Shown here piece after piece: positions 19,120 through 26,607 of a DNA stretch of 64,000 nt. Source of the DNA: Candidatus Binatia bacterium (lineage in GTDB: Bacteria; Methylomirabilota; Methylomirabilia; Rokubacteriales; CSP1-6); the NCBI GenBank assembly GCA_035635995.1, contig DASPZZ010000273.1, forward strand, positions 1,190 to 65,189, written 5' to 3'. Each line of letters begins with the position of its first letter. The first letter of the stretch is position 1. The position numbers and the translations under genes are program-made. The notes under the pieces were generated by a model that saw only the letters and a program-made list of their open reading frames with translations, ran no database searches and was not told the origin of the DNA.

Positions 19120-22100
19120 ATGAGCAGTGGCAGGCAGTCGGCACGTCGTCTCACGCTGGTCCTGGTTGTCGCCCTGCTGCTGGCGACCGCAGGCATCCTT
19201 TGCGCGGCCGAGATCTTCACGAAAGAGCGGGGCGCTGGCGAGATGTCGGAGGCCGGCGGCCGGGGCGATGACCGTGGGGACGATCGTGAGGATGGCCGTG
19301 AGGATGGTCAGAAGCCGCAGGCCGTGCAGATCGACAGCATCTCGCCCTCCTCCGCCACCCCCGGCGAACTGGTAACGATCACGGGCGTGGGCTTTGGAGC
19401 CCGTAATGTGCGGATTGCCGTGGGTGGCATCGCCGCCGAAGTTCTGACCGCCTCCGGCCACAGCGCGAAGTTTCGCGTTCCTTTCGGCGTCCGGCCGGGC
19501 GTCACCACCGTGACCGTCACCAACCCCGGAGGACACATCGGAAGCATCGCCTTTCAGGTTCTCAACCGTGTGCCGCAGGCCAACGCCGGGCCTGACCAGA
19601 CGGTCTTCGTGACAAGCACCGTCCGGTTGGACGGAAGCGCTTCCAGCGACAGCGATGGAGACGAGCTCAGCTTCCACTGGTCGTTCCTCTCACGGCCAAG
19701 CGGCAGCAACGCAGTCTTGACGGATGCCTCCGCCGTGCGCCCCGCCTTCGTTGTCGATCTGCCTGGGCGCTACGCCATCCGTCTCATCGTCAACGACGGC
19801 TTCGCCGACAGCCAGCCGGACACGGTCCTGATCGACACGCAGAATTCCCCGCCCGTCGCGAATGCGGGGCCCGATCAGACCGTGGCTGTGGGCGCGACCG
19901 TCCAGCTCGACGGCAGTGGCTCGTCGGATGTCGACCATGACCCCGTGAGGTTCCGGTGGTCATTCATCTCCAGACCCGCCGGCAGCCACGCGACTCTGAC
20001 CGACGAGACCGCGCCCGGTCCCGTATTCGTCGCGGACCTGTCCGGCAGGTATGTCGTCCAGCTCATCGTGAACGACGGCATCGTGGATAGCCGACCGGAC
20101 ACGGTCACGATCGACACTCGGAATTCCCGTCCGATCGCGAATGCGGGATCTGCTCAGACTGTCCTGGTGGGCGCGACGGTGCAGCTGGACGGGAGAGGAT
20201 CGTCCGACGTGGACGGCGATCCCCTCATGCTCCGGTGGTCGTTCGTGTCGAGACCGACCGGCAGCGCGGCCACGCTCTCCGACCCCACCGCCGTGAATCC
20301 GACGTTTGTCGCCGACGCGACCGGTACGTACGTCGTGCAGCTCATCGTCAACGACGGCGCAGTCGACTCTGAAGCGGCCACGGTCGTGGTCACGGCAAAC
20401 CCGAGGCCCGTCAATCAGCCGCCCGTCGTGAGCGCGGGACCCGACAAGACCGTCACGCTGCCCGGGACGGCAACGCTCAACGGCTCCGCCAGCGACGACG
20501 GTCTGCCCTTCGGCTCGGTGTTGACGATCGGTTGGAGCAAGGCGAGCGGGCCGGGCGTGGTGATCTTCGCCAACCCCAGCGCGCTACAGACCAGCGCGTC
20601 CTTTTCGGTGGCCGGTGATTACGTCCTGCGCCTGACCGCCAGCGATGGCCAGCTCTCGTCGAGCGATGAGGTGGCGGTGACGGTCAATGCCGTCAATCAG
20701 GCCCCCGCCGTCGATGCCGGACCCGATCAGACCATCAGGCTCCCGAACACCGCGACGCTCAACGGCACGGTTAGCGACGACGGCTTTCCGTCTGGCTCGA
20801 CCCTCACGATCGCATGGAGCACGGTCAGCGGCCTGGGCACGGTAACCTTCGCGAGCCCTAACACCATGTCCACGACCGCGACGTTCTCCACCAGCGGCCA
20901 GTATGTCCTGCGCCTGACGGCGAGCGACGGCGCCCTCTCATCCAGCGCCGACGTGAGAGTGACGGTAAATCCGGCGAGCGGCGGCGAGGGCCTGCCCCCC
21001 GACCCGGCCACCGTCGCGCCCCCGGTGAACCCCACGATCGCCACGGACATCAGGACCTCGACCGAGTTCCTCTACACCGGCGCCAACCCCATCCAGACCG
21101 GCGTTGTCCCGGGGACCATCGAGGCGAAACGCGCCGCGGTTCTACGGGGGAGGGCGCTAACCCGCGACGGAGTGCCCCTCCCCGGGGTGCGGATGACGAT
21201 CGTCGGTCGTTCGGAGTTCGGTCAGACTCTGAGCCGCGCAGATGGCATGTTCGACATGGCCGTCAACGGAGGCGGCTTCCTTACTGTGCGTTATGAGAAG
21301 GCCGGCTTCCTGCCCGCCCAGCGACAGATTAACGTGCCGTGGCAAGATTTCGCCTTCCTGCCCGACGTGGTCTTGATTCAGCTAGATTCTCAGGTCACCA
21401 CCGTCGACCTCAGCGCGAGCGTGTCGATCCAGGTCGCTCGCGGCAATCCGGTGACCGACGCAGACGGCACCAGACAAGCCACGCTGTTCTTCAACCAGGG
21501 CACGACGGCGACCATGGTGATGCCGGACAGCTCAATGCAGGCGCTGACGACACTCAACGTCCGGGCGACCGAGTACACCGTAGGCTCGAACGGCCCCACC
21601 GCGATGCCAGCCGAACTGCCGCCGATGAGCGCTTACACGTACGCCGTGGAGTTGAGCGCAGACGAGGCGATCGCAGCAGGAGCGAAGACCGTTAACTTCA
21701 GCCGGCCGGTGATCCAGTATGTCGAGAATTTCCTGGGCTTCCCCGTCGGCATGGCGGTCCCCGTCGGTTTCCTTGATCGTGAGAGGTCGGTGGGTTTTTA
21801 CAATCGCGACACATCGGCATGGATACCGTCGGACAACGGCCGGGTCATCCGGATCACCGGCGTTAGCGGCGGCCTGGCAACCGTGGATAGCGTGGGGACC
21901 CGCTCACTGCCGCCGCTTGTCCTCAGCACCGCCGAACTGCAACAGCTTGCGACGTTATACCCCACAGGTCAGACGTTGTGGCGAGTGCCGATCACCCACT
22001 TTACGCCATGGGATTACAACTGGCCTTACGGTCCACCGCCGGACCTGCGCGCACCCAGGGGAAACCCTGTCGCCGCGGACGAACCGCCGGACGAGGATTG

Positions 22101-26607: not shown

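Follow-up and report, generated by a model that had tools for sequence, protein, structure and literature searches.

Bacterial teneurin-like proteins (TLPs) were first noted by Jackson et al. (2018; PMC5851990), who described a Bacillus protein composed of Ig domains, a transthyretin-like (TTR) domain, an uncharacterised domain of ~180 residues, a plug, an NHL propeller and a shell, with variable C-termini of 100-150 amino acids (aa). Raoelijaona et al. (2026; PMC13018210) found TLPs in 139 genomes from six phyla and determined the structure of the TLP of Bacillus inaquosorum (BiTLP) by cryo-electron microscopy (cryo-EM) at 2.1 Å (PDB 9pt5, 9ifo). In BiTLP both self-cleavages and the enclosed cargo were demonstrated, a disulfide was seen between plug and cargo, and the cargo, of 93 aa, permeabilises membranes; several TLP cargos were toxic, and the downstream gene confers immunity (PMC13018210). 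Here we describe a TLP gene in 64,000 nucleotides of DNA from Candidatus Binatia bacterium (assembly GCA_035635995.1, contig DASPZZ010000273.1, positions 1,190 to 65,189 of the forward strand); this whole stretch is called the window, and positions are counted from its first letter. We found that the gene product belongs to the bacterial TLP family, a point on which hidden Markov models (HMMs), sequence comparison with solved structures and structure prediction agree. The gene is a further member of an already published family and not a discovery. By homology, it would encode a Sec-exported, surface-displayed polymorphic-toxin capsule of this family, a reading of its processing, export and toxicity to which we give a probability of about 0.8.

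Teneurin-like architecture of the gene product

The gene (~7.5 kb) starts at an ATG at 19120 and ends with a stop codon at 26605-26607. A preliminary description of this DNA had placed its end at 26346, a position that corresponds to L2409, the final residue of the RHS-associated core (DSDGL) and the predicted cleavage position, 86 codons before the stop; the C-terminal domain of 86 aa had in this way been omitted. An ENA contig encodes the identical protein, and a JGI soil sample contains a copy with 99.9% identity.

With Pfam, the domains follow each other in the order TIG, five PKD, TTR_TEN1-4, FN-plug_TEN1-4, TEN_NHL, TEN_YD-shell and RHS, the teneurin-specific models scoring above their cut-offs (Table 1). 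The HMMs for FN-plug, for NHL and for the YD shell are all matched in sequence order, which is the criterion that defines the TLP family, and a further family criterion, a TTR domain with the TIP (teneurin insertion protein) domain after it, both upstream of the plug, is also present here. The teneurin order of TTR, plug, NHL propeller and YD shell had been proposed in the preliminary description, together with an IPT/TIG-like domain and five PKD/Ig-like repeats at the N-terminal side, six NHL blades, and YD repeats followed by an RHS core, and all of this is borne out. The five PKD repeats are K319L-like in Pfam, and a 279-bp tandem repeat lies within the stalk at 19783-20358. The FN-plug match covers aa 1035-1103 (44 bits, E 3e-11), six DG[ST][LFI]Y[FI]AD blades are found in the sequence and six four-stranded blades in the AlphaFold model, and Pfam recognises nine RHS repeats. 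The region of about 430 aa that had been described ahead of the propeller does contain the FN-plug but is not a single region, as a TIP domain of ~230 aa precedes the plug. The peptides quoted in that description are present in the translation. As a separate observation, the signal sequence is joined to the TIG domain by a linker rich in Asp, Arg, Gly and Glu, GDDRGDDREDGREDG, which is encoded by a 12-bp tandem repeat (3.3 copies, 19267-19306).

When the protein was used as a phmmer query against all PDB chain sequences, the top matches were the TLP structures 9pt5 (1552 bits) and 9ifo (1495 bits), aligned over aa 450-2409. Every one of the vertebrate teneurin structures matched at 357-413 bits, with E-values down to 3e-122, the YD shell being aligned to residues 233-1544 of teneurin-2 (E 3e-122), and fly Ten-m scored 307 bits. 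The region before the propeller, searched alone, matched mouse teneurin-3 in its TTR domain (E 2e-17) and in its FN-plug (E 2e-15), and the alignment shows GMFD..ANGG..LTL.FE and F.WD..DAY...V.G....V.VGYEY, the teneurin TTR and plug motifs named in the preliminary description. We also modelled aa 640-1560 with AlphaFold (AF2), using 71 homologues, at a mean confidence score (pLDDT) of 86. In a Foldseek search of the PDB with this model, 9ifo ranked first (E 1e-53, 48% identical over 589 columns), twelve entries for fly, chicken, mouse and human teneurins came next (E 5e-47 to 2e-31), and generic NHL propellers ranked lower. The TM-scores are low (~0.3), as the model lacks the shell that would fix the domains relative to each other; despite this, the ranking of the predicted structure is unambiguous. 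The preliminary description had considered that the region before the propeller might prove unrelated to the teneurin TTR and plug, an outcome at odds with the HMM, alignment and Foldseek matches alike.

YD repeats and an RHS core are common to TLPs and to the Rhs proteins of type VI secretion systems (T6SS) or the Tc toxins, and the gene product might be an ordinary T6SS Rhs effector, or the TcB/TcC part of an ABC (Tc) toxin, that only resembles a teneurin. In the PDB search the T6SS Rhs proteins reached 82-109 bits, and the Tc toxins TcdB2-TccC3 and YenC2 were seen only with the core alone as query, at 29-37 bits, against ~1500 bits for the TLPs and ~410 bits for the teneurins. Where those proteins would have a PAAR/VgrG-binding domain or a TcB propeller, ours carries a signal-like N-terminus and TTR, TIP, FN-plug and NHL domains. 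Pfam finds no PAAR domain in it, and no T6SS, VgrG, PAAR or TcA genes lie within 10 kb of the gene. This domain content and neighbourhood rule out that the protein is a T6SS Rhs effector or a Tc component.

Concerning the distribution of the family, a scan of one genome per GTDB species with two TIP peptide patterns gave at least 581 confirmed TLP loci. All of the best 80 of these loci cover TTR through NHL, at 46-57% identity, and do not agree with the outcome, foreseen in the preliminary description, that the nearest homologues would be ordinary RHS proteins lacking the propeller. These best 80 loci come from Gamma- and Betaproteobacteria, Myxococcota, Desulfobacterota, Acidobacteriota, Bacillota, Nitrospirota, Chloroflexota and Verrucomicrobiota, and further from Planctomycetota (Brocadia), Gemmatimonadota, Bdellovibrionota and Magnetococcales; one metagenome-assembled genome of Desulfobacterales holds three of the copies. 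Beyond the six phyla reported in 2026, the TLP family is present in many others, such as Nitrospirota, Chloroflexota, Verrucomicrobiota, Planctomycetota (Brocadia), Gemmatimonadota and Bdellovibrionota. Complete TLP open reading frames (ORFs) in GTDB are mostly of 2000-2900 aa. The closest GTDB relative among the matches listed is only 57% identical, so that the soil clade of our protein is not represented in GTDB. A word-indexed protein search gave no relative of at least 1000 aa among the 120 matches listed, and full-length relatives were taken from genome loci. Short proteins with TTR, TIP and plug only, encoded on long contigs, had suggested split TLP genes; the one checked, on a 959-kb ENA long-read contig (L105), is a frameshift artefact of the assembly, since the neighbouring SecD/SecF genes are disrupted likewise.

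The existence of complete bacterial proteins that have the teneurin superfold points to a bacterial ancestor of a neuronal receptor of animals, and a clade of Paenibacillaceae has been reported as the closest to the animal proteins. The preliminary description was correct in regarding such a counterpart as evolutionarily informative, but the point had already been made and is established (PMC5851990; PMC13018210). In this sense, the gene adds a data point and not a concept, and it comes from an abundant uncultured soil lineage.

Table 1. Features of the TLP gene and its surroundings (window positions)
Feature	Position	Strand	Details and basis
TLP gene	19120..26607	+	2495 aa, uninterrupted ORF; Pfam, NCBIfam, phmmer
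N-terminal signal-like sequence, aa 1-30	19120..19209	+	by eye: basic n-region, hydrophobic core, ...AGILC28AA|E
Stalk: one IPT/TIG (aa 70-141) and five PKD/Ig repeats (aa ~149-620)	19327..20979	+	Pfam
Teneurin-type transthyretin-like (TTR) domain, aa 668-752	21121..21375	+	PF25020 (TTR_TEN1-4), 90 bits, E 8e-26
TIP domain, aa 753-976	21376..22047	+	aligned to BiTLP 480-704; no Pfam family
Predicted N-terminal autoproteolysis site, G998|S999	22111..22116	+	CNSTG|S aligned to BiTLP C719-NKE-G723|S724
FN-plug, aa 999 to ~1190	22114..22689	+	PF24329, mouse Ten3 alignment, Foldseek
Six-bladed NHL beta-propeller, aa ~1191-1520	22690..23679	+	PF25021 (TEN_NHL) 144 bits, PF01436, six blades in model
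YD-repeat shell, aa ~1521-2331	23680..26112	+	PF25023 (TEN_YD-shell) 162 bits, PF05593
RHS-associated core, aa 2332-2409	26113..26346	+	NCBIfam TIGR03696 (Rhs_assc_core)
C-terminal domain (cargo), 86 aa, 9.0 kDa	26347..26604	+	sequence, composition, repeats
Gap where an immunity gene is expected, 393 bp	26608..27000	.	no convincing ORF
Divergent regulator gene, 1072 aa, AfsR/SARP-like	15552..18770	-	BTAD + AAA_16/STAND ATPase + TPR; Pfam
Small ORF, 66 aa	18848..19048	+	starts MMTPGGDRPQAVFIVRLARDGAGKVAGVVERVRNGQKERF; Shine-Dalgarno (SD)-like GGGAGA; 72 nt upstream of TLP gene
HigA-type antitoxin (HTH_37), convergent with TLP gene	27001..27312	-	Pfam, intact
HigB/Gp49-type toxin pseudogene	27320..27583	-	PF05973, 25 bits; in-frame stop 27512-27514, scrambled middle

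Predicted self-cleavage sites and the TIP domain

Residues R2368, D2381, D2405 and L2409 of the RHS core align residue by residue to R2103, D2116, D2140 and L2144 of BiTLP, in which the cryo-EM density ends after L2144 (PMC13018210). From this alignment the aspartyl autoprotease appears intact, and cleavage is predicted after L2409 (DSDGL|K). The protease motif is missing in animal teneurins and intact here, so the protein is expected to cut and enclose its tail as bacterial toxins do and unlike the animal receptors. The second predicted site, G998|S999, has C994 four residues upstream, at the place of the BiTLP plug cysteine C719; among 72 homologues, the position of G998 is a glycine in 66, and that of S999 is a serine or cysteine in 71. 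Only four cysteines are found in the whole protein, C28 in the signal region, C994, C1003 and C2431, an inventory that fits a disulfide between plug and cargo as in the solved TLP.

By homology to BiTLP, the protein would be exported by Sec and displayed at the cell surface on its TIG/PKD stalk. The RHS core would cut the chain after L2409 and the peptide of 86 aa would stay enclosed in the shell, whose N-terminal mouth the FN-plug would seal. A second self-cleavage at G998|S999 would cut the plug loop, and C994 may be linked by a disulfide to C2431, the sole cysteine of the cargo. Contact with a target cell through the stalk or the propeller may then lead to release of the cargo and to its action on the target.

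Between TTR and plug, the protein has a spacing of ~230 residues compared with ~20 in teneurin-3, and this insertion is the TIP domain; a TIP-only profile matches 9pt5 with E 5e-106. TIP is found in 96% of bacterial TLPs and is absent from vertebrate and arthropod teneurins. The 2018 study reported its retention in the teneurins of choanoflagellates and amphioxus (PMC5851990), and it is unresolved in the cryo-EM maps of TLP (PMC13018210). In the alignment of 72 homologues TIP is the best-conserved stretch of the protein, with a motif R955-x4-H960-F-[ST]962-x-W-D965-x-N967 in which R955, H960, D965 and N967 are invariant, F961 is kept in 67 homologues and position 962 is threonine or serine in 71. 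The AlphaFold model of TIP alone has a pLDDT of 82 and a confident core (144 residues at 90 or above), and ends with the motif in a beta-strand, from which a disordered linker leads to the G|S site. A Foldseek search of the PDB with this model gave nothing at E <= 0.001; the sole matches of notable probability were ankyrin ZU5 domains (0.63 and 0.38, with a target-normalised TM-score of 0.48), and the TIP profile had no match beyond BiTLP in PDB sequences and Pfam. The ZU5 domains of PIDD and UNC5CL, and a domain of Nup98, cleave themselves at HF|S.

In view of the resemblance of H960-F961-T962 to the HF|S sites of PIDD, UNC5CL and Nup98, TIP may be a ZU5-like module for autoproteolysis in cis, which we regard as improbable for now; the resemblance is a lead rather than a result. 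If the proposal were true, a third cut would detach the capsule from the stalk, and a 37-residue peptide (T962-G998) would be left tethered to the cargo by the disulfide, which could supply the release or activation step that is missing for TLPs. The invariant H-F-[S/T] motif is in any case a concrete and testable lead on a domain without explanation so far.

The cargo and the search for an immunity gene

The C-terminal domain, or cargo, is a bipolar orphan peptide with a basic head and an acidic repeat tail, and no recognisable immunity gene accompanies it. The head (27 residues, nine of them lysines, pI 10.6) holds the single cysteine of the cargo, and the tail (59 residues, pI 4.05) is made of three repeats of 14 aa (VG.I E.L D/E), LEVGFGPIEFLDEP / LEVWVGDIEFLDQP / PKVGVGDIEILESD. 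These are encoded by a 42-bp tandem repeat at 26428-26547 (2.9 copies), whose 86% matches point to a recent duplication. The cargo is identical letter for letter in the independent soil sample and is therefore not an assembly artefact. Its length lies in the lower part of the range of 33-180 aa (median ~125) of 53 complete GTDB TLPs; several of these cargos, of 77-89 aa, look like cationic or membrane-active peptides. Some TLP cargos are very short or resemble simple peptides: L067 has (GGK)n, L056 a stretch that is cationic and amphipathic, and L027, L025, L039 and L054 have hydrophobic stretches of Gly/Ala/Val/Ile, which suggests that membrane-active peptide cargos are common among TLPs. In a decayed relative (L089) a different tail begins directly after DPNGL. 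Such a switch of tails right after the core signature is the usual mark of polymorphic toxins. Regarding similarity searches, four weak HMMER matches to the cargo were set aside as chance pairing of the repeat unit with Calx-beta-like domain junctions and other repeats.

An immunity gene follows almost all TLPs (PMC13018210), and it is the one feature of the family among those tested that we did not find. In 26608-27000 there is no coding-type ORF and no family match, and no gene was called there on the ENA contig. Given that the rule holds for almost all TLPs, this absence lowers confidence in a toxin but not in a TLP. We considered two candidates and rejected both. The only mechanical ORF of the gap, at 26634-26924 (96 aa, Arg/Ser-rich), has its lowest GC at the first codon position, belongs to no family, is uncalled on the ENA contig, and has its SD-like GGAGG too far upstream. 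The upstream ORF of 66 aa is conserved before unrelated cargo genes. A reading of the debris at 26608-27000 as an IS3-type transposase remnant has no Pfam support. The same interval contains, at 26795-26857 (+), a fragment of 21 residues, SPDGRYWGFLKREKIIGRAF, that resembles the C-terminal box of S26 signal peptidases at 20 bits, below the cut-off, and that is preceded by an in-frame stop.

The gap is one of several points that weigh against a toxin capsule. The signal peptide was judged by eye only and its lipobox is non-canonical, and the second protease motif reads DSDG rather than DPxG (DPSG in BiTLP). The cargo has no Pfam family or toxin-like feature, and among 1.84 billion representative proteins searched exhaustively with HMMER it has no true homologue; the recent 42-bp duplication could mark a degenerate or non-toxic tail. 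Furthermore, the delivery mechanism is not known for any TLP (PMC13018210).

A possible explanation of some of these observations is that the protein acts as an adhesin or a cell-cell recognition molecule, with the capsule kept as a scaffold, a C-terminal peptide that is harmless or signalling, and no need of an immunity gene. The lack of an immunity ORF, the orphan and non-enzymatic-looking peptide of 9 kDa and the long stalk of adhesin type, TIG/PKD, would agree with such a role, and a communication role for TLPs was left open by the authors of the 2026 study (PMC13018210). Against it, the autoprotease triad and both cleavage motifs are intact, which would be needless for a pure scaffold and which animal teneurins have lost; a small non-enzymatic cargo can be toxic, as that of BiTLP is (PMC13018210), and the cationic or membrane-active look of several GTDB cargos of similar size argues in the same direction. 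We consider a role as an adhesin credible but unlikely, and a toxin capsule remains our preferred reading. Nevertheless, since its repeat peptide is an orphan and an immunity gene is missing, this TLP may serve in signalling or adhesion without being toxic, and it constitutes a natural case bearing on whether all TLPs are toxins.

A variable cassette site and comparison with known systems

The TLP gene has a G+C content of 0.638 and a G+C content at third codon positions (GC3) of 0.76, which drops to 0.64 in the plug, against a GC3 of 0.88-0.95 in the native genes of the window. It is in fact less G+C-rich than its neighbours, as the preliminary description had noticed from a string that lies at 22813-22836. 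The flanking regulator (0.89) and DinB (0.92) genes are native-like in GC3 and HigA (0.77) matches the TLP gene, a pattern that delimits a low-GC block at ~19.1-27.9 kb; no direct repeats or attachment sites flank this block. The neighbours of the TLP gene in the window are Kdp, MgtE, permease, regulator, HigA, DinB and aminotransferase genes, and a sigma-70-like promoter of the HigB/Gp49 pseudogene is located at 27617-27589. The window contains no rRNA; the relatives of its KdpA at 91-92% identity are all metagenome proteins, one of them from GCA_009772195.1, which does not have the TLP locus, and a sigma-54 activator in the window speaks against Actinomycetota.

When metagenome contigs were scanned for relatives of the BTAD-AAA_16-TPR regulator, the site showed a constant frame of regulator, 66-aa ORF, cargo gene and higBA, in which relatives with a 90-98% identical regulator carry other genes for secreted proteins. 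In L091 the regulator is 98% identical and the TLP only 83% identical at its N-terminus; an extra gene for a secreted beta-roll repeat protein of 316 aa stands between them, and ahead of the second cargo gene there is another copy of the promoter region, of the small ORF and of the regulator's first 21 codons. In L087 (regulator 90% identical) a TIG-collagen protein takes the place of the TLP and is followed by HigA. In L103 (small ORF 91% identical) the cargo genes encode a PD40/Tricorn propeller protein and a protein of 531 aa without assignment, followed by HigA and an N-terminally truncated HigB toxin. The divergent pair of regulator and TLP is kept in L088, at 54% regulator identity. The TLP gene is an accessory cassette of foreign composition in a variable site; the composition and the other genes found there in close relatives support the horizontal origin that had been hinted at from the G+C content. 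The alternative cassettes are also of secreted surface type (TIG-collagen, beta-roll repeat and PD40 propeller proteins), a point on the side of the adhesin discussed above.

Other observations at this site raise the question of decay, that is, whether a former toxin/immunity cassette lost its toxin tip and its immunity gene, or had them scrambled, and survives as a long but non-functional ORF. The adjacent higB is a pseudogene, the 393 bp downstream are non-coding debris with the stop-interrupted peptidase-like fragment, and related TLPs are frameshifted or truncated: that of L088 (1164-8563, -) is split by a frameshift into two ORFs at the PKD/TTR boundary, and that of L089 (8990-9821, -) is reduced to a frameshifted fragment of about the last 330 aa with a different tail of ~32 aa. 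However, an ORF of 7.5 kb without stop or frameshift is unlikely to persist without selection, its identity across three independent assemblies is 99.9%, cargo included, its catalytic and structural motifs are all intact, and a coding-type codon-position bias runs through to the stop codon. Decay of the gene is accordingly highly improbable, and we retain an intact gene for a probable toxin capsule.

The small ORF of 66 aa, in the 349-bp intergenic region between regulator and TLP gene, matches no Pfam family, and just 8 close homologues of it exist among 5.8 billion proteins; together with the promoter region it is conserved ahead of different cargo genes in the relatives. The regulator and this ORF probably control the expression of the TLP gene. 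No similar regulator lies beside the TLPs in the 80 GTDB loci of other phyla, except for one weak case, so the link to the regulator is lineage-specific. A cassette site under an apparently dedicated regulator offers a handle on when TLPs are expressed. Regarding the wider surroundings, two relatives whose regulator is 95-96% identical lack the amino-acid permease gene (13601-15427, between regulator and mgtE), and in a relative with a 91% identical KdpA the entire stretch from mgtE through regulator to TLP is replaced by other genes (loci L083/L085/L104), which indicates that the region downstream of kdpABC is generally fluid. Additionally, ~4 kb past the TLP block, the gene calls of the ENA contig give a FitA-like ribbon-helix-helix protein of 80 aa with a partner of 89 aa (~30856-31364, -), probably another toxin-antitoxin module.

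In comparison with known systems, the T6SS Rhs effectors and TcB-TcC cocoons (7q97, 8h8a, 4o9x, 4igl) share with our protein the YD-repeat cocoon around a C-terminal cargo, which in those proteins is a toxin, and the Arg/Asp/Asp autoprotease residues by which the toxin is released. They match it at ~37-109 bits only and are without TTR, TIP, FN-plug and teneurin-type NHL. Their delivery depends on a T6SS spike or a TcA injector, and genes for these are absent from the neighbourhood here. The metazoan teneurins (Ten1-4 and Ten-m; 6fb3, 6fay, 7bam, 8fia) have the same superfold of TTR, FN-plug, six-bladed NHL and YD shell. The bacterial protein differs from them in that Pfam finds no intracellular domain, type II membrane anchor, EGF repeats, ABD or Tox-GHH, in its signal-like N-terminus in place of a long cytoplasmic domain, and in the TIP domain between TTR and plug. 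Its RHS aspartyl protease appears intact, and its C-terminus, judging from the aligned residues, would be cut and kept inside the shell and not threaded out.

BiTLP is the closest described system. The cargo of our protein is unrelated to that of BiTLP, is bipolar, contains repeats and has no membrane helix by prediction, and no downstream immunity gene is detectable; the protease motif is DSDG and not DPSG, the stalk consists of TIG and five PKD domains whereas BiTLP has BIG domains, and the gene comes not from a Bacillus but from an uncultured soil bacterium of high G+C content that has sigma-54 regulators. Both proteins have the Ig-type stalk, TTR, TIP, FN-plug, NHL, YD shell, RHS core and a short variable C-terminal domain of similar length (86 and 93 aa), and both self-cleavage sites and the plug cysteine of BiTLP are found in our protein as well.

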